From positions 513,490 to 577,489 of the forward strand of contig CP174360.1 in the NCBI GenBank assembly GCA_045401155.1: a stretch of DNA of 64,000 nt. The letters run 5' to 3'. This DNA comes from Candidatus Minusculum obligatum. Lineage in GTDB: Bacteria > Patescibacteriota > Minisyncoccia > Phycocordibacterales > Phycocordibacteraceae. A program made the translations under genes and the position numbers. This document shows, piece by piece, positions 3,143-59,280 of the stretch (the first letter of the stretch is position 1; each line of letters starts with the position of its first letter). The notes beneath the pieces are model-generated. The model did no database searches and had not been told where the DNA came from. It saw only the letters and a list, made by a program, of their open reading frames with translations.

Positions 3143-4813
3143 CTATTTTTCTTTTTCAAAATCAAGATACGCGAATGGGTCCACATCACCTCGAAGCACT
3201 TTCTTTCCTGGATTAAAAATATCTATCGGGTCCATTATTTTCTCTACTTTTTCAAAGAGATCCATCATCTCACTACCGAACATACGCTCTACATACGGAG
3301 TACGCACATATCCATCATTGTGCTCTCCTGAGATTGATCCATTGTATGAGAGCACTAACTCATATACACGCTCGCTCATCTCCTCAATAATTTGCCGAGC
3401 ATCTTTCCTCTTAGGATCCATAAGTGGAATGATATGGAAATTCCCATCCCCCACATGACCTGCAATTGTATACGTAAGGTCATACTCATTAAGAATTGCA
3501 TTTAACTTCGGAAGAAATTCCGTAAGTGTCTTTGGTGGCACCACAAAGTCTTCAATAAATGGCGCAGTTCGCTTCCCGCGCACCTTTTTGCGCAGCAAGT
3601 TAAAACTCTCTCGACGTACGGTCCAGTATTTTTGTGCAGCCTTTTTGTCTTTTGCAAAAAATGTTCCAATCTCTTTATTATCTTTTTTAATCTCCTCAAG
3701 AAGCTTCTTTGCTTTCTCTTGTACTTCTTTTTGATCATGAGACGTAAACTCAACCAAAAGCACAAGCTTGGGCACTCCTGATGTAAGAAGTCGTATAACC
3801 TCAGGAAGAAAAGAGATCCCTAGAGAAATAATGTTACTTCGCATCTGCACCGCAAACTCTGGAAAGTACTTTGTCGCAAGTTTAAATGTGTTGTCATCGT
3901 ATGACTCAAATGAATCTGGAGCGTGTTTTAAAATCTTTGGAATAAGAGATCCAAGATCATTTAGATCTTTTACAAAGAACACTGCCATCGAAGACTTTTC
4001 CTTTGGTGGAATAAGTGCAAACTTTATCTTCGTCACAATTCCCATGGTTCCCTGACTTCCAACTAAAAGCCGTGCAAGATTTAGAGAATGGGACCCATCT
4101 CCAATGTCCCAAAGCGCATACCCTGAAGAGTTCTTCTCTACTCCGGGCTTCTTCTTCTCAATAAGATCTTTATTCTCCGCTATAAGATTTCCAATCTCTC
4201 TATAGAGCGCACCCTCAAACGTATCTTCTTTTTTCTTTTGAGAGAGAAGGTCTCCTTCTAGATTTTTAAATGTATATACCTCTCCATCTGCAAGCACCAC
4301 CTCAAGCTCTTTTACGTATCGTGCCGTCTTCCCATATTTTAAATTCTTCTCACCCCCTGAATCATTTCCAACCATTCCTCCCACTGTACAAATTTCTCGA
4401 GATGCCGTGTATGAAGGGAGCTCAAGATTATGTTTTTTGGACTCTCTATCGAAATCTCTGAAATATACTCCCGGTTCTACGTACGCAAAATCATCCCCAA
4501 ATGCCAAAATCTTTGAAAAATGCGGAAGCATATCAACCACAATTGAATCAGTAAGCGGTCCACCACTCATATCAGTCCCTGCAGCTCGAGGTGTGAGATC
4601 TATGTCTCTACCCTTTTCTTTTTCTGCTTTTACAAAACGAACAAGCTTCTGCAGATCCTCTACATTTTTAGGAGCAACAACTACAGACGGCTTACGTACA
4701 AAAAGGCTCGCATCTCGACTATATTTTTCTAACGTTTCTTTTGAGTCATCAACATCTCCGTCGATGACATTTTTGAGTTCCTCGGCAAGAGTCATATGCC
4801 GAAATTGTATCAC
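3143..4813 (-). CDS. FAD-binding oxidoreductase (FAD-linked oxidase / GlcD-like, PCMH-type FAD domain)
   Basis: PSVVVAPKNVEDLQKLVRF and downstream G-rich FAD-binding motifs; 556 aa. Confidence 0.6.
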   Translation of the reverse strand: MIQFRHMTLAEELKNVIDGDVDDSKETLEKYSRDASLFVRKPSVVVAPKNVEDLQKLVRFVKAEKEKGRDIDLTPRAAGTDMSGGPLTDSIVVDMLPHFSKILAFGDDFAYVEPGVYFRDFDRESKKHNLELPSYTASREICTVGGMVGNDSGGEKNLKYGKTARYVKELEVVLADGEVYTFKNLEGDLLSQKKKEDTFEGALYREIGNLIAENKDLIEKKKPGVEKNSSGYALWDIGDGSHSLNLARLLVGSQGTMGIVTKIKFALIPPKEKSSMAVFFVKDLNDLGSLIPKILKHAPDSFESYDDNTFKLATKYFPEFAVQMRSNIISLGISFLPEVIRLLTSGVPKLVLLVEFTSHDQKEVQEKAKKLLEEIKKDNKEIGTFFAKDKKAAQKYWTVRRESFNLLRKKVRGKRTAPFIEDFVVPPKTLTEFLPKLNAILNEYDLTYTIAGHVGDGNFHIIPLMDPKRKDARQIIEEMSERVYELVLSYNGSISGEHNDGYVRTPYVERMFGSEMMDLFEKVEKIMDPIDIFNPGKKVLRGDVDPFAYLDFEKEK

Positions 4814-8353: not shown

Positions 8354-8425
8354 GGCCTGATGGCGAAGTGGTAACGCTGCGGTTTGCAAAACCGCCATGC
8401 GCGGGTTCGATTCCCGCTCAGGCCT
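8354..8425 (+). tRNA. tRNA-Cys (GCA)
   Basis: Cloverleaf by eye: acceptor ggcctga/tcaggcc, anticodon stem gcggt/accgc with loop ttGCAaa, T-arm gcggg-ttcgatt-cccgc, discriminator U. No encoded CCA. Confidence 0.85.
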
Positions 8426-8432
8426 CAATTTT

Positions 8433-8519
8433 GCCGGGATGGTGGAATTGGTAGACACGAGGGACTTAAACTCCCTTGATCAATTTATGATCGTGCGGGT
8501 TCGATTCCCGCTCCCGGCA
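8433..8519 (+). tRNA. tRNA-Leu (TAA), long variable arm
   Basis: Acceptor gccggga/tcccggc, anticodon stem aggga/tccct with loop ctTAAac, variable hairpin, T-arm gcggg-ttcgatt-cccgc. Confidence 0.85.
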
Positions 8520-8568
8520 CAAACATCTATTGCAAAATCTCGATAGTTCGATACTATCTCCCCTATAT

Positions 8569-8641
8569 CCGCCTATAGCTCAGCTGGTAGAGCAACTGCC
8601 TCTTAAGCAGTGGGTCCTAGGTTCGAGTCCTAGTGGGCGGA
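8569..8641 (+). tRNA. tRNA-Lys (CTT)
   Basis: D-arm gctcagctggtagagc, anticodon stem actgc/gcagt with loop ctCTTaa, T-arm ctagg-ttcgagt-cctag, acceptor ccgccta/tgggcgg (apparent C1:G72). Confidence 0.75.
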
Positions 8642-8660
8642 CACGCATTTGCGTAGCCAC

Positions 8661-8742
8661 GGGGATGTGGCGGAATTGGTAGACGCGCTAGTCTTAGGAA
8701 CTAGTAGGGCAACCTGTGGGGGTTCAAGTCCCCCCATCCCCA
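8661..8742 (+). tRNA. tRNA-Leu (TAG), long variable arm
   Basis: Acceptor ggggatg/catcccc, anticodon stem ctagt/actag with loop ctTAGga, T-arm ggggg-ttcaagt-ccccc. Confidence 0.85.
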
Positions 8743-8756
8743 CAAGTGTATGAATG

Positions 8757-8784
8757 AAGCCGCTTTATTAAGCGGTTTTATTCT
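8757..8784 (+). terminator. Rho-independent terminator after the infB-rbfA-tRNA cluster
   Basis: Hairpin gccgcttt-atta-aagcggt followed by a T-run. Confidence 0.6.
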
Positions 8785-8811
8785 TGACTATTGACATGTT
8801 TATGGTATAAT
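8784..8811 (+). promoter_or_regulatory. Sigma70-like promoter (TTGACT-16 nt-TATAAT) for the SPFH operon
   Basis: Near-consensus -35 and -10 hexamers with 16-nt spacer upstream of 8869. Confidence 0.55.
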
Positions 8812-8868
8812 AAATCTAGACACGTTGTTTGTCATCAAAACCTAGCAAAACAGAAAGGGGGTTCCTCC

Positions 8869-9870
8869 ATGTGGTGGAGCACATCTCTTTGGATCACTGG
8901 AGGAGTCCTCCTCTTGCTGATCATCGCGTTTTTCCTTTCCAAGAAAGGAACTACGCTTTCATTGGCTGTTGGTGTCGCTTTTAGCGTCCTCATCGGTCTT
9001 CTCATCTATGGAACAATCATCTATGCGCTTCGGCTCGAGATGTTCGTTCCGTCTTGGTTCGCGCAAATAGCCGCTCAAGTCATAGCGGCGGCAGCTGGCT
9101 TTCAAGTCTATCGGTTTGGAAGCGTTCTTGTGCCCCTAAAGCACAAGGCCGTGATCACCATCTTCGAAGAACGTCGGGATGAATGTCCGACCCTCGAAGA
9201 AGGCGCTGCCTGGCTTTTCCCCGGATTCATGAATGCCATCGCGGTCGATGCTCGGAAGTTCAATATTGATATTCCGCCTTTTTTCGTCTTCACAGAAGAC
9301 CTTATTAAGGTGGAGCTCAATCTTTCGAGCATCCTCTCGGTTGAGTGCCCAAACAAATATCTAAATGTCGATGCTGCAGAAAATATGATTCAGCAGCTCG
9401 CACGGCGCGCAGCGCGTGCCTGCTCAAACGACATTGGCGTAAGAGACATTGTCAAGCAAGACGACAAGATCTCCACCGCCATTCATGAAGAAGTTCAGGG
9501 TATTGTCTCTGATTGGGGCCTGAAGGTCCACTATATCAAGGCGGAGAATATCACGCCGCCTGATGAGATCGCGATGGAAGCTCAGCGCAAAGTGATCGAA
9601 GAGATCCAGCGCGAGGCGGAAGAGTATGAGGCGGAAACGCTTCAGCGGAAAATTTCCATTCTCGTCGACAAGTTCGAAAAGTATGGAATGACGCCGGACA
9701 AGGCCGCAAACCTGATCCAAGCAGAATCCAGCAAGATCACGCGTACGGCGTTTGACCTTGAGGGCATTGACAGTGTTAATGTCCTTCAGGCAGTCATCGC
9801 TTTCGCCGAAGCTCTGAAGGGCAAGGGATCGAAAGATACTGCTGGTACGGAAGAGGAGAGTGCGTCATGA
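8869..9870 (+). CDS. SPFH/band-7 domain membrane protein (HflK/HflC-stomatin family)
   Basis: Start MWWSTSLW preceded by an AAGGGGG Shine-Dalgarno. N-terminal TM segments, then a region collinear with HflK (VELNLSSILSVECPNKYLNV ... ITPPDEIAMEAQRKVIEEIQREAEEYEAE vs VEMNVQYRVTNPEKYLYSV ... RPPEEVKAAFDDAI..EAEAY). Gene body is markedly GC-richer than surrounding DNA. Confidence 0.75.
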   Translation: MWWSTSLWITGGVLLLLIIAFFLSKKGTTLSLAVGVAFSVLIGLLIYGTIIYALRLEMFVPSWFAQIAAQVIAAAAGFQVYRFGSVLVPLKHKAVITIFEERRDECPTLEEGAAWLFPGFMNAIAVDARKFNIDIPPFFVFTEDLIKVELNLSSILSVECPNKYLNVDAAENMIQQLARRAARACSNDIGVRDIVKQDDKISTAIHEEVQGIVSDWGLKVHYIKAENITPPDEIAMEAQRKVIEEIQREAEEYEAETLQRKISILVDKFEKYGMTPDKAANLIQAESSKITRTAFDLEGIDSVNVLQAVIAFAEALKGKGSKDTAGTEEESAS

Positions 9871-10307
9871 GCATGCCAACATCCCGTGCCGTTGAACACG
9901 GCCGCAATGCAACACCGCGAATGCTCTGGCTCTGGCTCATCATCGCGGCAATCATCGTTGGAAACGGGATCTATCACGTTCAGAAAATCGAACGCTCTCC
10001 CCTTTCCCAGCTCGCGCAAACGTCGAGAGACGCTACTTCGTTACCTGCCCAAGATACACCATGGGAGAACCAGGTTCTTGCAGCCGGCGAAGATACCCGC
10101 ATTCAATATGTGCCTGGTGGCTACCGGGTCTGCGTCAGCTCCTGGAGCGATCGTCAACGGTACTTCTGGTACGATGACGATCTTGAAGGAGATCTGAGGC
10201 CCCATGGTGGCGGAGACGTGACCATTGAACGTTTCCAGTTTCGGAACAGTTCGGACAACGAACTCCCGGTCCGCTTTCGGCTCATACCGTATGCACAAAC
10301 TTGCTAG
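9867..10307 (+). CDS. Membrane protein, possible NfeD-like partner of the SPFH protein
   Basis: ATGA-coupled to the SPFH gene. N-terminal TM helix plus a C-terminal ~70-aa soluble beta-rich region. SPFH genes are classically paired with nfeD; assignment is by context only. Confidence 0.4.
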   Translation: MSMPTSRAVEHGRNATPRMLWLWLIIAAIIVGNGIYHVQKIERSPLSQLAQTSRDATSLPAQDTPWENQVLAAGEDTRIQYVPGGYRVCVSSWSDRQRYFWYDDDLEGDLRPHGGGDVTIERFQFRNSSDNELPVRFRLIPYAQTC

Positions 10308-10630: not shown

Positions 10631-11026
10631 CTAGCGAATGTCCACTTCTGGAGGAGTAATAGTCTCTCCTTCAAGACCAAATGTTCCTACAAGAATGTTT
10701 ACAAGTCCCCATACTGATACCATCACGAAGAATGCAATGATTCCCCAAAGCATCAGCTGCTGACCTTCTTTTCGCTTGTCTTCTGAAGTTCCTCCAAGAA
10801 TAAAGCTTGTGAAAAGTCCCCAAACAAACACAATAAGTGCAAGCGCAAATACAAGCGGCACTAGTGTTCCATTAATAAAATTAATAACCGCATCTGCAAG
10901 ACCTTCAATGCTTCCAGCATTTTCAAACTGTGCAGCTGCAAGCAGTGGTGTAACCGCTACTGCGTACAGCGCAAGTCCACTTAGTGTTCCTGCTCCTAAA
11001 ATTCGTGTGTTCTTTTTCATACCCAT
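10631..11026 (-). CDS. Small two-helix membrane protein, paralog 2 of 4, with Sec-type signal peptide
   Basis: 131 aa; signal peptide ending AAA-Q, then TM1 - SEDKRKEGQQ loop - MLWGIIAFFVMVSVWGLV TM2. Confidence 0.55.
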   Translation of the reverse strand: MGMKKNTRILGAGTLSGLALYAVAVTPLLAAAQFENAGSIEGLADAVINFINGTLVPLVFALALIVFVWGLFTSFILGGTSEDKRKEGQQLMLWGIIAFFVMVSVWGLVNILVGTFGLEGETITPPEVDIR

Positions 11027-11083: not shown

Positions 11084-11329
11084 CTAAATACCAAATGATT
11101 TAAGTATAATGCGCACCAATCCCCACATAGAAACCACAACCGCAAACCCTATAATCCCCCACAACATGAACTGCGCACCCTCACTCCTAGACTTCGCATC
11201 ATCATATTTAACAAAGAAGTAGTTAAATATTCCCCACAAAAATAGCAAAAGCATTATTGCCAGCAACATAGGAATGATGCTGTTATTAAATATTTTTATG
11301 AGATATGTAACGAATTCTCGAAATGTCAT
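11084..11329 (-). CDS. Small two-helix membrane protein, paralog 3 of 4
   Basis: 81 aa; TM1 - DDAKSRSEGAQ loop - MLWGIIGFAVVVSMWGLV TM2. Confidence 0.55.
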   Translation of the reverse strand: MTFREFVTYLIKIFNNSIIPMLLAIMLLLFLWGIFNYFFVKYDDAKSRSEGAQFMLWGIIGFAVVVSMWGLVRIILKSFGI

Positions 11330-11751
11330 GATCCGCTTCCTATAGCTTCTACGGTCGCTTTAATAGCCTCTGCAATGATTTGCGCACCAATTAATATTAC
11401 TGCCCCTACAAGTGTCCAAAGTAGTGCTGCGCGAGCAGTCTTAATTGCCTCTGGATTTCCACGTGCATTTACAAACATAAACCCAACCACAACAATCATC
11501 ACAATCACCACCAATGTACCTAGGCGAACAATAAACTCTAAAATGTCAGTTAAAAACTCTTCCAGAGAATCAGCTTTTAGGGGGTTTTGAAGCTGGAACG
11601 TTGTGTTTCCAGGATTACCACCAGGAGTACCTACGCTGCCAGGATTACCTCCCGGGCTTCCTGTGCCACCAGGATTGCCTCCCTGCGCAAGAACCGCAAC
11701 CGGCGTCAAAACAAGAGAGAGTCCAAATAGAAATGAGAATAGTGTTTTCAT
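11326..11751 (-). CDS. Divergent paralog 4: signal peptide + GGNPG tandem-repeat linker + two-helix hairpin (VirB2/TrbC-like)
   Basis: 141 aa; signal peptide ..AVLA-QGG; three imperfect 10-aa repeats GGNPGxxGxP encoded by a ~30-nt tandem DNA repeat (11610-11700); then TM1 - NARGNPEAIKTAR loop - TM2. Confidence 0.5.
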   Translation of the reverse strand: MKTLFSFLFGLSLVLTPVAVLAQGGNPGGTGSPGGNPGSVGTPGGNPGNTTFQLQNPLKADSLEEFLTDILEFIVRLGTLVVIVMIVVVGFMFVNARGNPEAIKTARAALLWTLVGAVILIGAQIIAEAIKATVEAIGSGS

Positions 11752-13007
11752 AATTGTCGTAATAGTCGTTGTGCTTTTGTTAATGCTCCTATCGCATCTT
11801 CTCTACCACTTACTACATCATCAACCATAGCAGAGAAGATCTCGCCCACCTGCTCTGGCTGTGGAGAGAGCCATGCTTTTGCAATAAACGCTTCGTTATA
11901 TGCAAGATCTAGTACAGGATCTGCCTGTCGATTTGAAAGCAGTGTGCGCAGTACTGGAGCAATGTTTGATGCACTTGAAAATGCGTATGCATTGTTTTGA
12001 TTAATAAATGCAAATGCTGCAGTCTGAGATCCACTTACACTACGAGCTGCTTTTGGCACCGCAAATACATACACACTTCCGTATACAACCGGCACCCCAC
12101 CTTCAAGCTGTGGGAATGGAGCTGCTGCAAATGAGAGGTTTGGGTTTAATCCAGAAAGCACCTTTCCTTCGCTTGCTGGCGCAAAGTATAGCGTTAGATC
12201 TCCAAGCAAAAACGCCTTCTGATCCTCTTCTAAACTTTTATTCCATGAATACGCACTTGTATTTGGATTTGCAAACTCTGTATAGAAGCGAAGCGCACTC
12301 TCTGTGTCCTCACTATCTCCTCCAATAAGCTCTATCTGCCCTCTTGTATCACGAATGGGTGACCCTACTTGGAATAAGAAGCTTGCGAGCACCTTTTCTG
12401 CATGACGGATATTGCTATACGCACCAAGCGCTACAAAACTTTTATTGATTGAAAAACTTCCTGTTGTCTCAACAAAACGCGGCACAAGACCAACAAACTG
12501 CTCCCAAAACGCAGGTGCCTGACTTACGCGAGCACTATTAAGATGTGTCTTGTTATAAAACATCACAAGTGGGTCTACACCAACTGGAATACCAAGGTAC
12601 CCGTTTTGTGTAATCACCACATCTGCAACATCAACAAACGTGTCATCAAAGGTACGTGCTGGATATGTTTCAAAACTAATCGGCGCAAGTGTTTCTGAAA
12701 TTGATCCCAAAAGCTCATGCGGTACTAAAACCATGTCTGGCCCACGATCTGCAGCGAGCGCCTGGATATATGAATCATAAAAATCACTTTGATCTACCTC
12801 TACATAACTCACCCGATCAAAATCATCACGTCGATCTCGTACATTTCCAAGTGCTGCGCGCACCTCCTCCTTTGGAAGCGTTCCCCAAATAACAACTTCT
12901 CCAATAGTATTTTTATTATTTGAAGGATTTGCACCCGCAAAGACTAAAAGTCCGACGATAGCAAAAATCGCAAACCCCGCTGTTAAAATTAATTGAAATG
13001 GCTTCAT
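11748..13007 (-). CDS. Extracellular solute-binding protein (ABC-type family 1, MalE-like), membrane-anchored, orphan
   Basis: N-terminal TM anchor; VVIWGTLPKEE, LVPHELLGS, YLGIPVGVDPLVMFYNKTHL blocks typical of SBP_bac_1. No permease or ATPase adjacent. Confidence 0.5.
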   Translation of the reverse strand: MKPFQLILTAGFAIFAIVGLLVFAGANPSNNKNTIGEVVIWGTLPKEEVRAALGNVRDRRDDFDRVSYVEVDQSDFYDSYIQALAADRGPDMVLVPHELLGSISETLAPISFETYPARTFDDTFVDVADVVITQNGYLGIPVGVDPLVMFYNKTHLNSARVSQAPAFWEQFVGLVPRFVETTGSFSINKSFVALGAYSNIRHAEKVLASFLFQVGSPIRDTRGQIELIGGDSEDTESALRFYTEFANPNTSAYSWNKSLEEDQKAFLLGDLTLYFAPASEGKVLSGLNPNLSFAAAPFPQLEGGVPVVYGSVYVFAVPKAARSVSGSQTAAFAFINQNNAYAFSSASNIAPVLRTLLSNRQADPVLDLAYNEAFIAKAWLSPQPEQVGEIFSAMVDDVVSGREDAIGALTKAQRLLRQL

Positions 13008-13546
13008 GCTGGTTTCTTAAATACTAACGCATAATGGTGCGGTCCCGCACGAAATGCTTTCTCCTTGTGAAATCCCATATCGAGGAACAGGCGCTCTGCC
13101 TTATACTCCTCAATTACATTTTCCTGACGAGGACCAATGTTCCCATAGCTCCCTGCCCAATCAACTACGAGCACCTTTCCTCCTGGTTTTAAGATACGCC
13201 TGATCTCTGTAAGCGCGGCATTTGTATCCTCAATCTGAAACAGTACATTTCCTAAAATAACTGCATCGGCAGTCTCTGCTTTTAGTTTTGTGCCAAACTG
13301 CACCTCAATATCTCCCCATACGGTAGTGATATTAGAGAACCCATGCTCTACCGCCTCACGCTTAAGCGCCTTAAGTACATCCTCTTGTACATCAAGTGCA
13401 TACACGCGACCATCCGCACCAACAACAGGTGCTGCTGCAAGCGCGTAGTGCCCTACACCACTTCCAACATCAACAACGCGCATACCCTCACGCAGCCCCA
13501 TTTGTAGGATATTTGATTGCGGATTAGAAAATTCCATTACCCTCAA
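13004..13546 (-). CDS. Class I SAM-dependent methyltransferase
   Basis: VVDVGSGVGHYAL motif I, acidic motif II (ALDVQED), KPGGKVLVVD. Confidence 0.7.
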   Translation of the reverse strand: MRVMEFSNPQSNILQMGLREGMRVVDVGSGVGHYALAAAPVVGADGRVYALDVQEDVLKALKREAVEHGFSNITTVWGDIEVQFGTKLKAETADAVILGNVLFQIEDTNAALTEIRRILKPGGKVLVVDWAGSYGNIGPRQENVIEEYKAERLFLDMGFHKEKAFRAGPHHYALVFKKPA

Positions 13547-25322: not shown

Positions 25323-26243
25323 ATGCAGTATGATCTTGTAATTATTGGAGGTGGACCAGCAGGAGTAGCAGCTGGAGTATATGCGGCACGTAAAAAACTA
25401 AAGACCGCACTTATTACAAAAGACTTTGAAGGACAGAGCGTTGTCTCAGAAGGCATTCAAAACTGGATTGGAGAAGTTTCTATTCCCGGACCTGAACTTG
25501 TAAAGAAGTTTAGAGAACATCTTGATGCATACAAAGATGATGTTGTTGAAATACATGAGGGACATTGGGCAGAAAAACTAGAAAAGAAAGGTGATCAGAA
25601 CTTCCTTCTAACTACAGACAAGGGAGAGTTCTCTTCTAAAGCGGTGATTATTTGCTCAGGTGCAACAAGGAGAAGACTTGAGGTTCCTGGCGCAGATATT
25701 TTTGAACACAAAGGAGTTACATACTGTGCTTCATGTGATGGACCACTCTTTAGCGGGATGGATGTAGTTGTTGTCGGTGGAGGGAACGCTGGATTTGAAA
25801 CAGCAGCCCAACTTCTTGCGTATGCAAAAAGTGTAACGCTTCTACACCGCGGAGAAACTTTCAAAGCAGATCCTATAACTGTGGAGCGTGTACTCTCACA
25901 CGAGAATATGACCGGAATCACAAATGCCAATATTAAAAAGGTAAATGGTGAGAAATTTGTAACTGGCATTACATACGAAGTAAACGGTGAGGAAAAAGAA
26001 CTTCCTACAGCTGGTGTATTTATTGAAATTGGAATGGTTCCTTCTACAGACTTTGCAGCAAACCTTGTAGAGCTTGATGACTACAAACGAATTAAAGTGG
26101 ATGGAAAATCTCAGCAGACAACCACTCCCGGTGTCTGGGCTGCAGGAGATTGTACAAATGAGCTGTATCACCAAAACAATATTGCTGCAGGAGATGCAGT
26201 AAAAGCTCTAGAGGATGCATACGTGCACCTTAAGGCAAAGTGA
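25323..26243 (+). CDS. trxB: Thioredoxin-disulfide reductase-like FAD/NAD(P) oxidoreductase
   Basis: DLVIIGGGPAG, CASCDG redox-active disulfide, GGGNAG NAD(P) site. Confidence 0.8.
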   Translation: MQYDLVIIGGGPAGVAAGVYAARKKLKTALITKDFEGQSVVSEGIQNWIGEVSIPGPELVKKFREHLDAYKDDVVEIHEGHWAEKLEKKGDQNFLLTTDKGEFSSKAVIICSGATRRRLEVPGADIFEHKGVTYCASCDGPLFSGMDVVVVGGGNAGFETAAQLLAYAKSVTLLHRGETFKADPITVERVLSHENMTGITNANIKKVNGEKFVTGITYEVNGEEKELPTAGVFIEIGMVPSTDFAANLVELDDYKRIKVDGKSQQTTTPGVWAAGDCTNELYHQNNIAAGDAVKALEDAYVHLKAK

Positions 26244-26665
26244 TGCAGAATATCCGTACAGCCCCTCAGCTACTCGTACGAATCTTTATTCGTCCTCTAT
26301 TTCCCTTCTTTCAATGGCTTGTGCTTAGTCTTGGAATTGTAAAAGCACCAAAAGAACGACAACAGTTTCTATTAGGATCTCTTAAAAAAGAATTATCTAT
26401 CTCTGACGCAAAACAACATCTTCATACGCAAGGGTTCTTTTTAAATCGTATTGCATTTAATGACCCTGGACAAACCTTAAGTATGCGAAAGCTTTCTTTA
26501 GAGAATCCCCGGTGGCAATACCACGTACGTATTTTTGAAGATGGAGAAGTTCGTGGACACTTTGAAAGAACTCCAGAAGACTATCCTTTACGGCACCTAA
26601 AAGCCGATGGGCAAATTAAAAAAGAAGAAGACTTTGCCTTCTTCTTAAAAGAAATTTTGGAGTAA
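26240..26665 (+). CDS. Hypothetical protein
   Basis: ORF only; start uncertain; convergent with the AOX-like gene. Confidence 0.25.
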   Translation: MMQNIRTAPQLLVRIFIRPLFPFFQWLVLSLGIVKAPKERQQFLLGSLKKELSISDAKQHLHTQGFFLNRIAFNDPGQTLSMRKLSLENPRWQYHVRIFEDGEVRGHFERTPEDYPLRHLKADGQIKKEEDFAFFLKEILE

Positions 26666-27352
26666 TTACGAGCGCGGTACAGAAATACGCTCAATTGATT
26701 TATTTCTGTGAATTAACTCATCGTCTCGAATTGAGCAAAATAGCTCATATTCATTCAGACATTCACGTCCATAAAATTTTAAAAACTCGCTTTCTACTGT
26801 TTTCTTTTTCATTTCTTCCCCACACTGCTCAATAAACTCACTGTACTGCTGATACGCGTGTGACTCAAAAAGATAATTGAGTTCAAGTGCTGACTTTCTT
26901 TTCACCGTATAAAGAATAGAGCTTACGATGTAATAAAAGAAAGAAAACAGAAGCGGGATAAGGTAGTGTCGAAATGGCCCTCCAAGACCCTCTCTTTTTG
27001 CAATCTGGCTCATTACCACCACGTGCATCGTTTCATTATCTTGGGCGATTCTTCCAAAACGAGATGTATATGTAAGATTAATTGCTTTCTTCTCATCTCC
27101 ATACATGGCGGTTAAAAACATGTATGAGACCCACTCCCATGCCTGGTATGGAATACGTGCAATAACTTCTACTGCCTTAAATTTCTCGTATGAAGGCTTC
27201 TTTCCATATACAAAATTTCCAGCGCCAACAAGTATTGTTCCAAAAATCTTTGCGGTTAAACCAACCTTGTAGTCGTTACATTTATTCTCGTATTTTTTCT
27301 TAAATTCAGGGTCTTTCAGCTTCTCTAGGAGCTCTTCGTGTTTTGGATCCAT
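26666..27352 (-). CDS. Alternative oxidase (AOX/PTOX)-like di-iron carboxylate protein
   Basis: Four AOX-type iron-ligand motifs in order: VEVIARIP (cf. LETVAGVP), DNETMHV (cf. NERMHL), LFESHAYQQY (cf. LEEEAxHSY), IRDDELIHRN (cf. RADEAHHRD). Confidence 0.55.
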   Translation of the reverse strand: MDPKHEELLEKLKDPEFKKKYENKCNDYKVGLTAKIFGTILVGAGNFVYGKKPSYEKFKAVEVIARIPYQAWEWVSYMFLTAMYGDEKKAINLTYTSRFGRIAQDNETMHVVVMSQIAKREGLGGPFRHYLIPLLFSFFYYIVSSILYTVKRKSALELNYLFESHAYQQYSEFIEQCGEEMKKKTVESEFLKFYGRECLNEYELFCSIRDDELIHRNKSIERISVPRS

Positions 27353-27426
27353 ATACGCACAATTCTAGCAAAATTATATTCATACTGGCGTTTTACCCTC
27401 AGCATGCTACAATCGCCGCTACTTAC

Positions 27427-27498
27427 GGCCCTATCGTCTAACGGCTAGGACGCCACCCTTTCACGGTGGAAATCGGGGTTCGATTCCCCGTAGGGTCA
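27427..27498 (+). tRNA. tRNA-Glu (TTC)
   Basis: Acceptor ggcccta/tagggtc, anticodon stem ccacc/ggtgg with loop ctTTCac, T-arm cgggg-ttcgatt-ccccg. Confidence 0.85.
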
Positions 27499-28497
27499 CA
27501 CAAATTCAGGCTCATGCACGAGCTCTACATTTAAATTAAACCTGACCCTCTCAACAACATGTTGGTAGATATTTTTAATATCTTCTGAAGAAGCATTTCC
27601 TTTATTAATAAGCATGTTCGCCTGCACAGAAGAAACACATGCGTCATTTATACAAAATCCTTTGAGCCCCACATGTTCAATAAGTGCTCCTGCAGGAATT
27701 TTATAGCCACTCTCCATCTCAAAACACTTCTTCTGAACCTCCTCTGGAAGAAAACTAATATCCTTAACTTCTACGTTTTTAAAGAAAGATCCAACACTAA
27801 AAACCCTTTCTGGGTCAAGATCTTTTTCTTTTCTAATTGTAATAACTGTGTCTCGTATATTTTTCTGAGAAACTTCACCTACTCGATCCTGAAGTCCTCT
27901 GTATGTAAGTATCGGATGCTCTGTTTTAGAAAGGCGTAATTCGACGTGCGTAATAATATATCGACCCTTTTTCTTTGTATTAAAAATGCTTTTTCTATAT
28001 CCGAAGCTACACTCCTTATTATCGAGCACTCCATACACCCCATCTTTTGTATCAAATATATGTACACGTTCTATATATGAAGATGCCTCTACTCCATATG
28101 CACCGACATTCTGAACCGCAAGACCTGCAACAAGTCCTGGAATCCAAGAAAGATTTTCAAGACCCCACCAACCTTTATCTACCGTATGCTGTATAAAATT
28201 GTCTAACACCTCAGATCCACCAACCTTCACCAAGACACTTTCATCACTCTCCTCTAGCACAGAAGTACCTAAAAATTTTGGGGAAATGACAACCGCATCT
28301 ATTTCTCCATCAGGCAGCACGATATTGCTTCCACCACCTAAAACAAAAACTGGTAGATCTTTTTCTTTTGCAAAAGAAACTGCGCTCTCAAGATCATCCG
28401 TATCTATAAAATATCTCGCAGAACCACCAACCTTAAGGGTTGTTTTTTCTTTTAGCGAATAGCGCTCGTGTATCTCCATCATATTGAATAGTACCAA
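27496..28497 (-). CDS. murB: UDP-N-acetylenolpyruvoylglucosamine reductase
   Basis: FAD-binding PCMH domain (PVFVLGGGSNIV), MurB C-terminal domain. Confidence 0.85.
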   Translation of the reverse strand: MVLFNMMEIHERYSLKEKTTLKVGGSARYFIDTDDLESAVSFAKEKDLPVFVLGGGSNIVLPDGEIDAVVISPKFLGTSVLEESDESVLVKVGGSEVLDNFIQHTVDKGWWGLENLSWIPGLVAGLAVQNVGAYGVEASSYIERVHIFDTKDGVYGVLDNKECSFGYRKSIFNTKKKGRYIITHVELRLSKTEHPILTYRGLQDRVGEVSQKNIRDTVITIRKEKDLDPERVFSVGSFFKNVEVKDISFLPEEVQKKCFEMESGYKIPAGALIEHVGLKGFCINDACVSSVQANMLINKGNASSEDIKNIYQHVVERVRFNLNVELVHEPEFV

Positions 28498-33753: not shown

Positions 33754-33999
33754 TTAAAGACCCAGAAGCTCTTTAAGACGATCCTCATCATATCCGATTA
33801 CCATCTCTTCTCCGATGAAAATAACAGGTACCCCCATCTGTCCACTCTTTTCAATCATCTCTGCACGCTTCTCCTGATCAACAGAAACATCATGCTCTGT
33901 ATACTCAACGCCATTTTCTTTGAAAAACTCTTTTGAAGTTTGGCAGAAATGACATGTTGGTGTGCTGTAGATTGTTACTTGCTTATCCATGTGTATCAA
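33754..33999 (-). CDS. Glutaredoxin-family protein (NrdH/GrxC-like)
   Basis: CHFC redox motif after beta-1 (VTIYSTPTCHFCQ), thioredoxin fold; ~80 aa. Confidence 0.75.
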   Translation of the reverse strand: MIHMDKQVTIYSTPTCHFCQTSKEFFKENGVEYTEHDVSVDQEKRAEMIEKSGQMGVPVIFIGEEMVIGYDEDRLKELLGL

Positions 34000-40451: not shown

Positions 40452-41486
40452 TTAGAACTCCCAATCCCCCTTTAGTCCTGTTGACTGAGTGTAGTTCACT
40501 ACAGTCGTCTCAAAAAAGTTACTCTTGTCATTATCTGTATCTTGTAGTCGCTCAAGGTGCACGTACGGATTCTTTTCTGCCTCAGGATAAATTGGATCGA
40601 TACCAATACGAGCCATACGCTCATTTGCAAGCCACTGTGTGTACTCACGGATTGTATCCTTACTAATTCCTGGAATATCCTCTCCCATAATGTGATTGCT
40701 CCACATAATCTCTTGATCAACCGCAGCCTTTGTCATATCGATGATTACCTGCTCATCAAACATCTCTGGAAACTCTTTCTTAATTTCATTAAGAATATTT
40801 GCAAACATCACCACGTGCGTAAGCTCGTCCCGACGAATATACGCGATCATTCGTCCTGTTGCGAGCATCTTCATATTGTCTACAAGCGTATCGAAAAATG
40901 CGAACCCGTTGTAGAAATAAAGTCCCTCAAGAAGATAGTCGGCAACAAGTGTCTCAAAGAAATTCTTATCGCTTGGATCATCAATAAAGCGCTGGTAGAT
41001 ATCTCCAATGTATCTATTACGCTCAAGAAGCGTTTTGTCCGTCTTCCAGAAATAGTAAATTTCATTTCGCTCCTTTGAGTCCACCACTGACTCAAGAATA
41101 GTTGCATAACTTTGTGAATGAATAGCCTCCTGGTACGCCTGAATAGCAAAAAGAAGATTTACCTCAGGAGCCGTAATGTAATCTGAAATATTTGGAAGGT
41201 TTACGGTCTGCACTGAATCGAGGAAGATAAGGAATGAAAGAATTCCCTTATATGCCTTTTGCTCTGCAGGAGAAAGATCACTATGAAATGCATTAGCATC
41301 CTCCTTAAGTCCCATTACCTTCTCTGGAATCCAGAAGTTTCCAACCATGACAGGATAAAGCTTCTTTGCCCAACTATACTTTGTCGCATTAAGCTGAAAC
41401 AGTCCTGTGGTTGAACCCTTGATAATAGTTCGATTGGCAACAGTATCATCCCCTTCCGGATTAAAAATCCTATTTTCTTGAATCAT
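40452..41486 (-). CDS. nrdB: Ribonucleoside-diphosphate reductase beta subunit (class I R2)
   Basis: Di-iron ligands (EAIHSQSY, ExxH), radical-Tyr region, C-terminal DWEF tail. Confidence 0.88.
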   Translation of the reverse strand: MIQENRIFNPEGDDTVANRTIIKGSTTGLFQLNATKYSWAKKLYPVMVGNFWIPEKVMGLKEDANAFHSDLSPAEQKAYKGILSFLIFLDSVQTVNLPNISDYITAPEVNLLFAIQAYQEAIHSQSYATILESVVDSKERNEIYYFWKTDKTLLERNRYIGDIYQRFIDDPSDKNFFETLVADYLLEGLYFYNGFAFFDTLVDNMKMLATGRMIAYIRRDELTHVVMFANILNEIKKEFPEMFDEQVIIDMTKAAVDQEIMWSNHIMGEDIPGISKDTIREYTQWLANERMARIGIDPIYPEAEKNPYVHLERLQDTDNDKSNFFETTVVNYTQSTGLKGDWEF

Positions 41487-41499
41487 ATTTCTTACTTAC

Positions 41500-44262
41500 T
41501 TATCCGCTACAACTTTCACACACATTATATTTTGGCTTCTCTGGAGCAGGACTTGCCGCCATCTTTGGAGCCTCCTTTTTTGTAGATGGCTCATTATCTA
41601 CCTTTGCTGAGAGACTCCGCACGTAGTACACCGTCTTAATTCCCTTTTCATGCGCACGAATGTAATACTGGTACAGCTGCTGTGGTGAGGTTCGTTCTGG
41701 ATTAATCATCCATTCGAAACTAATTGACTGGTCAATCCACTGATAGATTTCTGCGATCAGATCGATCACATCCTCCATATTCATGTTGATGTACTCCTTG
41801 TAGTACGGGAAGTTGTCTTTATCTAGCTGCGGCGCAACACGAATCGTTGGAGATGAAAGATTGTTCTCCACAAAGTATCGCTTATAGATTGGAAGAAGTG
41901 CGGCTGTAGTTCCTACCACTCCAGCAGTTGAAGTGTTTGGTGCAGGACCAGTGTGGTACCCAAATCTAAATCCACTTGTGGTCATATCAGCAAATAGCTC
42001 TTCCCACTGCTGTGCACGATTTGGATTATTCTCCATGAACCACTCCTTCTCACGTCCAAGTAAGATTCCTTTACTATACTGAGATCCCGGGAATAGCTCG
42101 TAGTGCCCACGCTCCTTAGCAAGATCTGCACTTGCTCGATACATATGATATGAGTATCGCTCAAAGAGCTTATTTACCTCCTTCTTTGCCTCCTCTGAAT
42201 CATAGGCAATGTGATTTGTTGCCAGATACTCAGCAAGACCAAGGTACCCAACACCAACTGGACGGTACCGCTTTGCAGTACGCTCTGACTCCTTAATTGG
42301 GTAGTAGTTAAGCGTAATCACGTTATCAAGCGCACGCATAAGAACGGGATACACTTCTTTAACGGTCTTCTCATCATTTACTTTTGCAACGTTTACTGAA
42401 GCTAGATTACACACCACAGTATCTCCTGCCTTGTACTTAAGTGTAATGGTTCCATCTTCGTGAGACTCTTCTTGGAACTTAGATGGCGAAGTATTTTGAC
42501 AAATCTCAGTACATAGCTGTGTTGAATATACATTTCCAGCGTGTTGGTTTGGATTTAATCTGTTTACAGTATCTCGGAAGAAGATGTACGGCATTCCTGT
42601 CTCCACCACTGTCTTAAGGTGCTTCTTAAATAGCTCCTTTGCATTTACTGTCTTCTTAAGCTTTAGACGATCATCTCGTTCAAGCTCCTCATAGAAGGCG
42701 TCAAACTCTTCATTAAAGTGGTCTTGGAGTCGCTTCCCATAGAGTGTCTCAACCTCGTGCGGATCAAAGAGTGTCCAATCTGCATTCTCTTTCATACGTC
42801 GCATGAATAGATCTGGAACTGAGATAGCCGGAAATACATCAAAAGCCTTGTTTCGAATATCCCCTGTCTCAGTCTGAAGATCTAGGAAGTCATAGATATC
42901 TCGATGCCACATATCAAGTGTCACAGAAATAGCACCCATACGAGCCCCAAGCTGATTTACAGCCACACCGGTATCATTAATAACCTTCAGCCATGGATTT
43001 ACTCCTCCTGAAGCCTTTTCTACTCCTCGGATAGCAGCTTCTCGCGAACGAATGTGCCCCCAATACATTCCAACTCCCCCTCCAAACTTAGAAATCTGTG
43101 CAACATTCTCAATTGCATGGTAAATCGCACGAAGATCATCATCCACATTTAGTTTGAAACAACTTGAAAGCTGGTGGTAGTTTGTTCGTGAGTTAAGAAG
43201 TGTTGGTGTTGGAAGAGAAATCTTCTGTGTAGAACACGCATCATATAGCTTAAATGCATATTGAAGACGATTCTCACTTGCCTCAGGAATCGCAAGGAAC
43301 AAGGCTACAGACATATATAGCTCCTGTGGAAGCTCCTTTACTACTCCATTTGGATTTAGAAGGTATCGCTTTGAAAGCGACAGTACAGTAGTGTACTGAT
43401 AGCTATCATCGTAACTTTGCTTTAGATACTCACCTGCTTTTTTAATGTCCTCCTTTGTGTAGTACTTAAAGAAGTCTTTATAGTAGAGCCCTTTCTCTAC
43501 GTACTCCTCAAAGAGCGCAAGATATGTATCTGGAGTATAAATATCCTTAATATCAATTTTTCGATTCTTTGTAGCCTGCTTATATAGATTCTCAAGAAGT
43601 AGTCGTGCCGCAATATGCTGCCACCATGTATTTTCGATGGTCACCATATCAATCGCAGTCTTAATCATGAAGCGATTAATATCTTTTGTCTCCATGTCAT
43701 TTGCGAGATTTCGCTTAAATGCCTCTAGAAAATCCTCAAAGTGACATTTATTCTCATATCCTCGACATACACGATTAAATACACGCTTAATCTTTGTAAG
43801 CTCAAATGTCTCAATCTCTCCATTTGCTTTTTTTACTGAGAATTTCTTCTCATCTAGCTGTGCTAGAAGATCATAGTGATTCTTCTTTCTTGCCTGCGCT
43901 CGCTCATCTCGATACAAAATGTAGTGCTTTGCAACATCAAAACGCTTTGCTTCCATGAGCGCGTTCTCAACTGCATCCTGCACCTGCTCAACAGTAAGAA
44001 GTTTTACCCCCTCAGTATGCGCATGCCGCTCAAGATTAATGAGCATCTCATCAACAAGCCCTGAAATGAAGCTCGTGTCGTCTACTCCTACAGCAGTACA
44101 CGCCTTTGCAATGGCTTCTTCAATCCGCCGACGATTAAATGGAACAACACGCCCATCTCTTTTTTCAATATTCGCGAGTACCGCATCTCCCGGCACAATA
44201 CGAGGCCCTTCGGCGCTACTAGGTGGTGTTCCTATGACCGTTTTCGTCGGCAGTTTATCCAT
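41500..44262 (-). CDS. nrdA: Ribonucleoside-diphosphate reductase alpha subunit (class I) with N-terminal ATP-cone
   Basis: Start at MDKLPTK. ATP-cone (VEKRDGRVVPFNRRRIEEAI), catalytic-Cys regions, C-terminal CESCSG redox tail. Confidence 0.9.
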   Translation of the reverse strand: MDKLPTKTVIGTPPSSAEGPRIVPGDAVLANIEKRDGRVVPFNRRRIEEAIAKACTAVGVDDTSFISGLVDEMLINLERHAHTEGVKLLTVEQVQDAVENALMEAKRFDVAKHYILYRDERAQARKKNHYDLLAQLDEKKFSVKKANGEIETFELTKIKRVFNRVCRGYENKCHFEDFLEAFKRNLANDMETKDINRFMIKTAIDMVTIENTWWQHIAARLLLENLYKQATKNRKIDIKDIYTPDTYLALFEEYVEKGLYYKDFFKYYTKEDIKKAGEYLKQSYDDSYQYTTVLSLSKRYLLNPNGVVKELPQELYMSVALFLAIPEASENRLQYAFKLYDACSTQKISLPTPTLLNSRTNYHQLSSCFKLNVDDDLRAIYHAIENVAQISKFGGGVGMYWGHIRSREAAIRGVEKASGGVNPWLKVINDTGVAVNQLGARMGAISVTLDMWHRDIYDFLDLQTETGDIRNKAFDVFPAISVPDLFMRRMKENADWTLFDPHEVETLYGKRLQDHFNEEFDAFYEELERDDRLKLKKTVNAKELFKKHLKTVVETGMPYIFFRDTVNRLNPNQHAGNVYSTQLCTEICQNTSPSKFQEESHEDGTITLKYKAGDTVVCNLASVNVAKVNDEKTVKEVYPVLMRALDNVITLNYYPIKESERTAKRYRPVGVGYLGLAEYLATNHIAYDSEEAKKEVNKLFERYSYHMYRASADLAKERGHYELFPGSQYSKGILLGREKEWFMENNPNRAQQWEELFADMTTSGFRFGYHTGPAPNTSTAGVVGTTAALLPIYKRYFVENNLSSPTIRVAPQLDKDNFPYYKEYINMNMEDVIDLIAEIYQWIDQSISFEWMINPERTSPQQLYQYYIRAHEKGIKTVYYVRSLSAKVDNEPSTKKEAPKMAASPAPEKPKYNVCESCSG

Positions 44263-44423
44263 ACCAATTACATGAGTGTTACTACTAATTTGATATAGAG
44301 ATAGTAGCACTGTAAACAATGTAAAGACCTGTGGATATCCCCTCAAAACAAGACTCCGAAACATATTTTACTACGTAGGCAATACCCTCCTTCTGTCGCC
44401 CTTTTGTTTGGCCCTCAAATAGA

Positions 44424-56511: not shown

Positions 56512-57180
56512 TCAACCTTTGTGCCACCCAACCGCCGCTTCAGGATATATCTTTATGAGCGGATCCTCTGAGGTATCGTACCTCCTTGCAGGAGCAATGT
56601 TTCTCCCATACTCAATAGCAAGATACGTAAAATTAAACCAATCTTTTTTAGGAATCACTTCCATCAAATCTTTTTCTATTTTTTCTGGAGTCGTATGATC
56701 TGTGAGATCAAATCGTATTGCAAAGCGCTTCACATGCGTATCTACTGCAATCCCCTCTACAATCCCATATGCATTCCCCAATACAACATTTGCGGTCTTC
56801 CTCCCCACTCCAGGGATCGTAATCATTTCCTCAATAGTTTTTGGAATTTTTCCATCAAAATCCTCCTTTACAACCTTTGCAGCGGCAAGAATATTTTTTG
56901 CTTTGTTTTTATAAAACCCTGTTGATTTAATATCTTGCTCAAACTCTTTAAGATCTGCTCGAACGTAATCATCTAATTTCTTATACTTCTTAAAAAGCTT
57001 CTCGGTAACCTTATTTACCATCTTGTCTGTACATTGTGCAGAGAGCGCAACCGCAACCACAAGTTCCCAGTTATTAGAATACTTTAAAATCATCCCTGCC
57101 TCAGGAAAAATGCTTTTTAGTTTTTTAATTAGGTTTTTTGCTCGAACCTTTCTCTCCTCCATAGTATTACTGTAGTTCAT
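56512..57180 (-). CDS. Endonuclease III-like HhH-GPD glycosylase lacking the 4Fe-4S cysteine motif
   Basis: HhH motif (ITIPGVGRKTANVVL), catalytic Lys/Asp region (VDTHVKR); C-terminus has no Cys cluster. Confidence 0.65.
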   Translation of the reverse strand: MNYSNTMEERKVRAKNLIKKLKSIFPEAGMILKYSNNWELVVAVALSAQCTDKMVNKVTEKLFKKYKKLDDYVRADLKEFEQDIKSTGFYKNKAKNILAAAKVVKEDFDGKIPKTIEEMITIPGVGRKTANVVLGNAYGIVEGIAVDTHVKRFAIRFDLTDHTTPEKIEKDLMEVIPKKDWFNFTYLAIEYGRNIAPARRYDTSEDPLIKIYPEAAVGWHKG

Positions 57181-58357: not shown

Positions 58358-58834
58358 TTACCCTTCCTCTCTTCGCATCATTGGTGGAATAAGATCTGTA
58401 TATCGAGGCGCTTCCTTTGGAATTCTAATGATAAGCAACGCAACAATAATAAGAAGTGTTGCCAGAATTGCTGAAAGCATGCAGTACATGCACACCGCAC
58501 CAATTACAAAGAACTGTAGGTAGACGAAATACAGGGACGCGAGAAATCCAATTGATGCTCCCAGGGTAAATAGTTGAGATAACATGCGCACGCGCACCAT
58601 AAGCATAGTTGCCGCCAACACAAACATTCCAAAATAGAAAAGTACACCCCACGATGCAAGTGGCACCCCAAGCACAATTGAGTACGGACTTGCTGCAACA
58701 GCGTTACATCCATTTAAAATACTGCAGTTAAGAGGCTCTCCTGATACGTGCGACTGCACAAGGTAAAAAGAATTTGTTAGTCCGATAAAAGAAAGAATTA
58801 CTCCTGCCCACACCAATCCAATATATTTTTTCAT
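58358..58834 (-). CDS. Vitamin K epoxide reductase (VKOR) family protein
   Basis: Start at MKKYIGL. Four TM helices, loop Cys pair (CSILNGC) and an active-site CMYC (CxxC) in the last TM. Confidence 0.7.
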   Translation of the reverse strand: MKKYIGLVWAGVILSFIGLTNSFYLVQSHVSGEPLNCSILNGCNAVAASPYSIVLGVPLASWGVLFYFGMFVLAATMLMVRVRMLSQLFTLGASIGFLASLYFVYLQFFVIGAVCMYCMLSAILATLLIIVALLIIRIPKEAPRYTDLIPPMMRREEG

Positions 58835-58856
58835 ATCTAATATCCTATAGAATTTC

Positions 58857-59087
58857 TTACAGTTTCTCAAATCGAGGAGATCCCTCATGCAGCTCCAAAA
58901 ATCGATCTATACTCTGTACCCAAACAAGATCTTTATTAGCAACATCTTGATACACCACAACTTCCTCAAGCTCATCTTTTTCAGATGACCGCCCCACAAA
59001 AAGCACATCGTACTCATTTCCCTTGTAGTGGCGATACCTCCCAAGCTCTAGGGTTTTTGCCTTTTCTGAGTATTCAAGATCCGCCAT
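58857..59087 (-). CDS. DUF1653-family protein
   Basis: Start at MADLEY. GRYRHYKGNEYDVLFVGRSSEKDELEEVVVYQDV matches the DUF1653 signature. Confidence 0.6.
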   Translation of the reverse strand: MADLEYSEKAKTLELGRYRHYKGNEYDVLFVGRSSEKDELEEVVVYQDVANKDLVWVQSIDRFLELHEGSPRFEKL

Positions 59088-59088
59088 A

Positions 59089-59280
59089 TTATTCTCCCTT
59101 CTTCCAATTTCTAATAACAAGACGCTTTCTCTTCTCATCCACTTCGACAACAAGCTTTTGTCGATCCTTCCATTTAAATTTTCTAACTGCCTCAATCGGC
59201 ATTGTTACGCTGTAGCTTGCACCTCCTGCAATCTTAGTGAGCGCACGCACATGCCGTTTTTCTAGATCTTTTCCTACCAT
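59089..59280 (-). CDS. AbrB/MazE/SpoVT-family swapped-hairpin DNA-binding protein
   Basis: ALTKIAGGASYSVTMPIEAVRKF resembles the AbrB-N / MazE motif (GGSLxVTIPKEI); 63 aa. Confidence 0.5.
   Translation of the reverse strand: MVGKDLEKRHVRALTKIAGGASYSVTMPIEAVRKFKWKDRQKLVVEVDEKRKRLVIRNWKKGE

Follow-up and report, generated by a model that had tools for sequence, protein, structure and literature searches.

Why would a reduced bacterial genome with no apparent respiratory chain carry a gene resembling a quinol oxidase? Bacteria of the candidate phyla radiation (CPR, or Patescibacteria) are usually described as fermentative and without electron transport. The question is raised by a 64,000-nucleotide stretch of the genome of the ultra-small CPR bacterium Candidatus Minusculum obligatum (contig CP174360.1, positions 513,490 to 577,489), hereafter the window. 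An open reading frame (ORF) at positions 26666..27352 of the window, on the minus strand, starts with ATG and encodes 228 amino acids. A first-pass annotation of the DNA had recognized in this protein the four iron-binding motifs of the alternative oxidase (AOX) and plastoquinol terminal oxidase (PTOX) family in the right order, and the present analysis confirms that reading. Based on the ORF, its Pfam match, its predicted fold, and its substitution rates, we identify the gene as encoding a PTOX-like (AOX-family) membrane di-iron oxidase: a bona fide member of the AOX/PTOX superfamily with an intact active site and under purifying selection. By analogy with characterized relatives, we estimate a probability of roughly two in three that the protein is a membrane-bound quinol:O2 oxidoreductase, serving as a non-energy-conserving O2 sink that re-oxidizes quinol.

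Active site and predicted fold

The Pfam AOX profile (PF01786) matches the oxidase with 33.3 bits against a gathering cut-off of 22.7 (E = 4.9e-8, profile positions 44-209 of 216). The same profile is matched by all 24 aligned relatives, with a best E value of 1.4e-11, while NCBIfam contains no model matching the oxidase. As a reference we used Trypanosoma brucei AOX (TAO), identical to Protein Data Bank (PDB) entry 3VV9 chain A across 329 residues, and 86 CPR sequences were aligned with TAO and three cyanophage PTOX sequences using MAFFT. The predicted iron ligands E62, E107, H110, E163, E212, and H215 align with TAO E123, E162, H165, E213, E266, and H269 and with the PTOX ligands, bearing out the motif-based assignment. 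Residues N106, D211, Y170, Y194, A65, and A166 align with TAO N161, D265, Y220, Y246, A126, and A216. Ligands and pocket positions alike are 99-100% conserved among 86 distinct relatives, and Y170, N106, and D211, at the catalytic-Tyr and second-sphere Asn/Asp positions, are invariant in the clade.

All four motifs were located on the minus strand from these alignments. In N- to C-terminal order, they are EVIARIP (E62, equivalent to TAO E123; 27149..27169), NETMH (N106, E107, and H110, equivalent to TAO N161, E162, and H165; 27023..27037), ESHAY (E163 and H165), which opens the longer stretch E163-S-H165-A-Y-Q-Q-Y170 (E163 and Y170 equivalent to TAO E213 and Y220; 26843..26866), and RDDELIH (R209, D211, E212, and H215, the last three equivalent to TAO D265, E266, and H269; 26708..26728). 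At position +2 of the third motif, the oxidase and PTOX have His where AOX has Glu. Five residues before E62 lies an invariant lysine, K57, which corresponds to TAO R118 and a PTOX Arg in an ungapped reading from E62. Separately, the oxidase has Ala at residue 71, a position occupied by a single residue type in at least 98% of the family (Ser in aligned relatives).

An AlphaFold2 model computed with the family alignment is all-helical, with a predicted local distance difference test score (pLDDT) of 84.9 and a predicted template modeling score (pTM) of 0.85, and shows the AOX-type helical-bundle fold. When this model was compared with the PDB using Foldseek, the top 13 matches were all TAO chains (probability 0.99-1.00), and the next match fell to 0.12. 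Two predicted hydrophobic helices occupy the positions of the AOX membrane-binding helices and are candidate interfacial or transmembrane segments. One spans residues 32-49 (27206..27259, minus strand; Kyte-Doolittle peak 1.47) and is the counterpart of AOX alpha1; the other, strongly hydrophobic, spans residues 126-150 (26903..26977, minus strand; peak 1.74) and is the counterpart of AOX alpha4. Ahead of both, residues 1-30 (27263..27352, minus strand) constitute an N-terminal extension seen in the alignments and modeled as two short helices (pLDDT 87-96). Within the extension, conservation reaches at least 98% at E6, L12, and Y21, and H5 never varies in the 24-sequence alignment. Nothing in cyanophage PTOX corresponds to the extension, and PTOX alignments start near residue 39-49.

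Selection on the gene is purifying: comparisons with its relatives give ratios of nonsynonymous to synonymous substitution rates (dN/dS) of 0.02-0.06, and 0.023 in the sole pair with unsaturated synonymous sites. The first-pass annotation had named COQ7 and MiaE as families that might fit better, and neither they nor ferritins do. The Pfam COQ7 profile weakly matches 5 of the 24 members (best E = 2.6e-5) versus 24 of 24 for AOX, and the COQ7 structure 7sss_E ranks 36th in Foldseek with a template modeling score (TM) of 0.34 and a probability of 0.23. MiaE was rejected on profile and fold rank, and ferritins were rejected on fold matches with TM 0.3-0.35 and probability at or below 0.4.

Placement within the superfamily

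Judged by sequence comparison, the oxidase stands on the PTOX side of the family, PTOX-like yet distinct from PTOX proper. The earlier description of an AOX-like di-iron protein therefore holds for the family but not for the subtype, given 26-34 bits toward PTOX and 1-3.5 bits toward TAO. Pairwise scores of the oxidase are 26-31 bits with PTOX and about 1 bit with TAO, and PTOX scored against TAO gives 0-4 bits; the CPR family profile yields 28-34 bits against the three cyanophage PTOX sequences and 3.5 bits against TAO. A tblastn search of 50,697 phage records with the oxidase matched 54, of which 53 are cyanophages, and all 15 rows listed fall on annotated plastoquinol terminal oxidase genes (~27% identity over ~75% of the query). 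Cyanophage PTOX models are also the best viral structure matches (E = 7.7e-7, TM 0.59/0.66). The motif forms typical of PTOX (ARxPY, E-x-H-A...Y, and [DN]DE..H) are present, as EVIARIPY, ESHAYQQY, and RDDELIH in the oxidase versus EEIARAPY, ECHAAETY, and KNDELHH in cyanophage PTOX. The mitochondrial-type AOX subfamily was rejected on its 1-3.5 bits against TAO and on a third motif of ESHAY rather than the LEEEA type.

In an exhaustive HMMER search of 1.84 billion representatives, 488 clusters reached E <=1e-3, of which no more than 15 reached <=1e-30. Separation from PTOX emerged when full-length representatives were scored again. Full-length representatives of the core CPR clade exceed 200 bits on the CPR profile and reach 12-37 bits on a phage-PTOX profile built from just three cyanophage sequences, whereas bona fide PTOX representatives score 100-160 bits on the latter, which marks the CPR sequences as a separate clade. 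Between them lies an intermediate clade with the motif "EDHAEHEY" (e.g., P0139 and P0144), at 60-130 bits on the CPR profile. No scored representative exceeds ~33 bits against TAO. The "EDHAEHEY" clade is the nearest outgroup by profile score and is similar in size and motifs, but occurs in non-CPR hosts and in other gene contexts. It is likewise uncharacterized and thus adds no biochemical knowledge.

The closest known systems illustrate this placement. With PTOX of the IMMUTANS type, including cyanobacterial and cyanophage forms, the oxidase shares the Pfam family, the four iron motifs, and its best sequence and fold match, and it is similar in size to the short phage and cyanobacterial forms. 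Unlike PTOX, its clade has the conserved 30-residue N-terminal extension and Gln in place of a pocket Thr, and its host is non-photosynthetic with no plastoquinone pathway in view. With mitochondrial and proteobacterial AOX (TAO, 3VV9), it shares the fold, counterparts of all six Fe ligands and of Y220, N161, D265, Y246, A126, and A216, and a pair of hydrophobic helices in the positions of the AOX membrane-binding ones. It departs from AOX in motif 3 (E-S-H-A versus E-E-E-A), in not conserving W247, and in sequence similarity that is nearly undetectable (1-3.5 bits).

Distribution and genomic context

The first-pass annotation had called AOX proteins rare in bacteria. That does not apply to this lineage, in which the clade is Patescibacteria-wide. 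Searching 5.8 billion proteins gave 1,009 oxidase relatives at 90%-identity clustering. The best 120 of these are 55-93% identical and ~227-261 amino acids long, and those that bear a name are called "alternative oxidase" or "ubiquinol oxidase", from metagenome-assembled genomes (MAGs) of Parcubacteria, Minisyncoccia, or Moraniibacteriota. In a pattern-seeded scan with a single genome for each GTDB species, relatives turned up in at least 126 genomes. Nearly all of the 80 carrier genomes listed are labeled as Patescibacteria (Paceibacterota, Moraniibacteriota, Wolfebacteria, Kaiserbacteria, or "Patescibacteria group"), and a few bear the automatic labels Saccharibacteria, Bdellovibrionales, or Flavobacteriales. 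The nearest among the matches listed are UBA2103 and UBA3533 (84% identity) and a Wolfebacteria MAG (78%). The C7867-004 genome of Nelson and Stegen also carries a clade member, labeled "hypothetical protein" by NCBI. Carriers with non-CPR labels (several "Bdellovibrionales" MAGs and L011, a 1.9-kb contig of a "Flavobacteriales" MAG) look like binning or naming artefacts. At one locus (L060), two adjacent ORFs belong to the oxidase cluster and may represent a tandem duplication or a split gene.

We surveyed gene neighborhoods at 86 non-redundant loci using crude gene calls and clustering. At least six distinct neighborhoods were found, all composed of housekeeping genes and lying on CPR contigs of up to 766 kb: GtrA, TerC, FAD oxidase, oxidase, RRM protein, and DUF1360 (FAD, flavin adenine dinucleotide); ArgS, histidine phosphatase, oxidase, and IleS; a nucleotidyl transferase divergent from the oxidase; UvrC, oxidase, and Ddl; a sigma factor, cluster c75, and oxidase; and the window's own arrangement of MurB, oxidase, and TrxB. 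The closest relative on a long contig keeps the order of the window (MurJ, LepA, glutaredoxin, Hsp20, PrsW, aminoacyl-tRNA synthetase, TsaD, MurB, oxidase, TrxB, FtsZ, FtsA). This shared order and the labels of the carriers assign the window to a CPR genome of Paceibacteria type. Such a variety of housekeeping contexts as seen across the loci points to a long-resident gene rather than a recent island.

Proposed function and candidate electron donors

In the proposed mechanism, E62, E107, H110, E163, E212, and H215 would ligate the di-iron centre, with Y170 alongside. Two membrane quinols would each donate two electrons to the enzyme, which would reduce O2 to water with no proton pumping, as in characterized relatives. 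The enzyme would thereby keep oxygen low and re-oxidize a small quinone pool, the quinone probably being scavenged from a host. That pool could be reduced by a VKOR-family protein during disulfide-bond formation, by a D-lactate/glycolate-type flavoprotein dehydrogenase, or by both. The window was scanned with Pfam and NCBIfam across most of its long non-overlapping ORFs (one short ORF beside GroEL was left out; FtsZ and TsaD were assigned via synteny with L007). Among the ORFs scanned, no respiratory complex or cytochrome oxidase is recognizable in the 64 kb, in agreement with the earlier remark that respiratory-chain genes are not visible near the oxidase. With neither a recognizable respiratory chain nor quinone synthesis in view, the job of the enzyme would be something other than energy conservation.

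The window does encode two enzymes of types that ordinarily pass electrons on to membrane acceptors. One candidate quinone-reducing partner is a VKOR-family membrane thiol oxidoreductase at 58358..58888 (minus strand; Pfam VKOR, 86 bits), 31 kb from the oxidase. Homologues of VKOR oxidize DsbA/MdbA-type proteins and reduce a quinone. The window protein retains, as read from its sequence, the loop pair C55 and C61 and the CxxC site C133-M-Y-C136. The earlier annotation counted VKOR among detoxification genes; it is better read as a possible quinone-reducing partner. Around it on the minus strand lie a DUF1653 protein, a DUF389 membrane protein, and a polytopic 244-residue membrane protein without a family match (59322-60056, 58857-59195, and 57615-58337). 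These flanking proteins lack CxxC, so the thiol partner of VKOR would be encoded elsewhere. The scheme has functional analogues in the Escherichia coli DsbB-ubiquinone-cytochrome bo/bd pathway and the actinobacterial MdbA-VKOR pathway, in which a thiol oxidase reduces quinone and a terminal oxidase re-oxidizes it with O2. The terminal oxidase here, in contrast, would be a non-heme, non-pumping di-iron enzyme, and we infer the link between the two.

The other candidate donor is a 556-residue FAD-linked 2-hydroxyacid dehydrogenase of the D-lactate/glycolate type (3143..4813, minus strand; Pfam FAD_binding_4 and FAD-oxidase_C), 22 kb from the oxidase. Its nearest solved relatives in the PDB are LctD, glycolate oxidase (GlcD), and D-lactate dehydrogenase. 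By BLAST, it shares 47-50% identity along its entire length with neighborhood cluster c2, an FAD dehydrogenase that accompanies the oxidase in about 30 other CPR genomes, adjoining it in 17 of the 86 loci and lying within three genes in 27. At locus L004, the dehydrogenase is on the oxidase strand and ends 18 bp before the oxidase. At another Patescibacteria locus (L006, MAG, 8683-9933), a glucose/sorbosone dehydrogenase (GSDH) of the pyrroloquinoline quinone (PQQ) type immediately precedes the oxidase in the same orientation; here a different type of dehydrogenase fills the place taken elsewhere by the FAD oxidase.

Weighing of alternatives

Several results weigh against a quinol oxidase fed by these partners. 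The position of TAO ligand-pocket residue T219 is an invariant Gln in the clade, and that of W247 is Gly. Neither phmmer nor the 24-sequence family profile reached TAO among PDB sequences, and hhalign of the family with TAO, though in the expected register, gave a probability of 0.6% and E = 0.1, with no statistical support of its own. Foldseek TM values to TAO are 0.47-0.58, with a root-mean-square deviation above 8 A. No quinone-biosynthesis gene is recognizable among the window ORFs scanned, such that the presumed quinone substrate would need to be imported. VKOR lies within 10 kb of the oxidase in none of the 86 other loci, and a family profile and CxxC scan found no MdbA/DsbA-type gene in the whole window. 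The adjacency of c2 falls entirely within one conserved synteny block, making it nearly a single evolutionary observation, and we have downgraded it accordingly.

Part of this evidence would suit a protein that uses the same di-iron scaffold for other chemistry, whether as a COQ7- or MiaE-like hydroxylase/oxygenase or as an oxidase with a non-quinone donor such as a neighboring flavoprotein dehydrogenase. A function of this kind, which we consider unlikely, would explain the presence of the gene in quinone-less cells, and CPR genomes have been reported without quinone biosynthesis (PMC4508563). The exchange of T219 for an invariant Gln, the clade's own conserved N-terminal extension, and the same-strand FAD dehydrogenase 18 bp before the oxidase in L004 could be read in the same way. 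The faint COQ7 resemblance (5 of 24 members, best E = 2.6e-5) is outweighed by the stronger and universal AOX match (24 of 24) and by the low standing of the COQ7 structure (rank 36, TM 0.34, probability 0.23). The AOX-specific Tyr (equivalent to Y220) and the second-sphere Asn and Asp are invariant, the nearest characterized relatives in both sequence and fold are PTOX quinol oxidases, and the VKOR encoded in this genome implies the presence of a quinone. Still less probable is a non-catalytic role in which the di-iron site is an O2/redox sensor or an iron store. Some ferritin-like four-helix bundles do act as sensors or iron stores, and the fold search matched ferritins weakly (TM 0.3-0.35, probability <=0.4), but the oxidase has no output or DNA-binding domain and conserves both the catalytic Tyr and the lining of the AOX ligand pocket; we give this reading very little credence.

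The gene might also have no settled role, as a recent transfer or mis-binned sequence (from cyanobacteria, cyanophage, or proteobacteria) or as a decaying remnant. A eukaryote-centered survey treated its one CPR AOX match as a proteobacterial transfer (PMC9540462), a few carrier MAGs have non-CPR labels, and G+C dips to 0.39 at 26-28 kb of the window versus about 0.42-0.45 in adjacent bins. A dN/dS of 0.02-0.06 is at odds with decay or recent arrival, as are core housekeeping neighbors in at least six synteny contexts on long CPR contigs and the retention of window synteny by the closest relatives. The clade is also well separated from both PTOX and AOX, which argues against recent import from either, and we judge this explanation highly improbable.

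Oxygen-related genes

The first-pass annotation also proposed that the oxidase belongs to an oxygen-handling or detoxification toolkit. The genes on which this rested are all in the window: NrdA (41500-44364) and NrdB (40452-41486), glutaredoxin (33754-33999), Bcp (57167-57694), and VKOR. Class I ribonucleotide reductase (RNR) needs O2, and its presence points to O2 exposure. The genes for RNR, Bcp, a TrxB-like reductase, and glutaredoxin are nonetheless spread across more than 50 kb, with housekeeping genes in between, and form no cluster, leaving the toolkit itself a conjecture.

A hint of oxygen defense comes from the "EDHAEHEY" clade. In a non-CPR anaerobe (L092, GCA_964621645.1, 3949-4833), an "EDHAEHEY" gene sits in an oxidative-stress cluster, with a divergent Fur/PerR-type regulator, three rubrerythrins, a rubrerythrin-SpoIIE fusion, and a rubredoxin upstream and an MsrA/B fusion downstream. 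This setting fits an O2-defense role. A second such gene (L093) lies by glucose-6-phosphate dehydrogenase (G6PD), 6-phosphogluconolactonase, and a rubrerythrin. This sister clade of non-CPR bacteria was also seen at L091. In cyanophage S-SSM6b (L088, 274-1071), a PTOX gene is next to 6-phosphogluconate dehydrogenase. Genes from the PTOX side of the family thus recur beside oxidative pentose-phosphate genes, which may link NADPH supply to oxidase function.

Local features of the window

The oxidase gene lies between trxB and tRNA-Glu/murB, as originally described, with one additional ORF intervening after trxB. The trxB-like gene (25323-26243, plus strand) matches TIGR01292 at 263 bits, under the model cut-off, and is followed by a conserved hypothetical ORF of 141 amino acids (26240-26665, plus strand) with homologues in L007, L008, and L010 and no Pfam match. 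On the other side are tRNA-Glu (27427-27499, plus strand) and murB (27496-28497, minus strand; TIGR00179, 214 bits versus a cut-off of 144.5). Genes are packed very tightly here: murB ends within the antisense tRNA-Glu, overlapping its 3' end by 4 nt (27496-27499), the 141-residue ORF overlaps trxB by 4 nt (26240-26243), and its stop codon abuts the convergent oxidase stop (26665/26666). A terminator-like hairpin with an 11-bp stem followed by a T run (26622..26646, minus strand; from a consensus scan only) lies ~20 nt past the oxidase stop codon and, owing to the abutting stops, within the 3' end of the 141-residue ORF. The consensus scan detected no sigma-70-like promoter upstream of the oxidase on the minus strand. 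The G+C content of window positions 26001-28000 is 0.391.

Elsewhere in the window, a 180-residue S-adenosylmethionine (SAM) methyltransferase (13004-13546, minus strand) was rejected as evidence of quinone biosynthesis. Its UbiE, MenG, and MpqE matches are far under cut-offs, and it equally matches arsenite and generic methyltransferase families. Small ORFs at 10631-11026 and 11326-11751 (both minus strand) match the type IV secretion pilin families T4SS_pilin and TrbC/VirB2 and adjoin a solute-binding protein gene. Four tRNA genes (Cys, Leu-taa, Lys-ctt, and Leu-tag) occupy 8354-8743 (plus strand) between rbfA and an SPFH/Band 7 gene.

Implications for oxygen use in Patescibacteria

The oxygen-reductase surveys of CPR that we consulted concerned other enzymes. 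In eight Parcubacteria genomes, Nelson and Stegen reported quinone-dependent bo3 or bd oxidases in three but no quinone biosynthesis (PMC4508563). Beam et al. searched for heme-copper and bd oxidases only, detecting them in 0.6% of Patescibacteria single-cell genomes (PMC7507113). On the thiol side, Meheust et al. described an MdbA-like family enriched in CPR and 750 CPR genomes with both MdbA-like and VKOR proteins, in a text that never uses the word "quinone" (PMC6744442). The eukaryote-centered survey noted above, with its single CPR AOX match read as a transfer from proteobacteria (PMC9540462), is the only mention that our searches linking PTOX, AOX, or K17893 to CPR names retrieved, and it does not describe this clade; the later studies of CPR oxygen adaptation that we consulted do not mention AOX or PTOX. 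Public databases already annotate such genes automatically as "alternative oxidase" or "ubiquinol oxidase". Given these labels, and chemistry expected to be that already established for the family, what would be gained is physiological and evolutionary insight, not a novel type of enzyme.

A conserved di-iron quinol-oxidase family would add an oxygen-consumption route in CPR outside the reach of heme-copper and bd surveys. It would also give the quinone-dependent VKOR, widespread in CPR, an electron outlet, and thus offer a directly testable explanation of oxygen handling and quinone-dependent thiol oxidation in CPR without a respiratory chain. More tentatively, we propose as possible rather than probable that the clade is the overlooked terminal oxidase of many Paceibacteria-type CPR. 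Electrons would pass from MdbA/VKOR, a D-2-hydroxyacid dehydrogenase, or both to a host quinone, then to the oxidase and O2, with no energy conserved. If so, many supposedly strictly anaerobic, respiratory-chain-free CPR would consume oxygen and depend on host quinones, and oxygen use in these bacteria would be greater than surveys limited to heme-copper and bd oxidases have indicated. Together with its "EDHAEHEY" sister, the clade would then represent a third, deep-branching lineage relevant to how PTOX and AOX arose.

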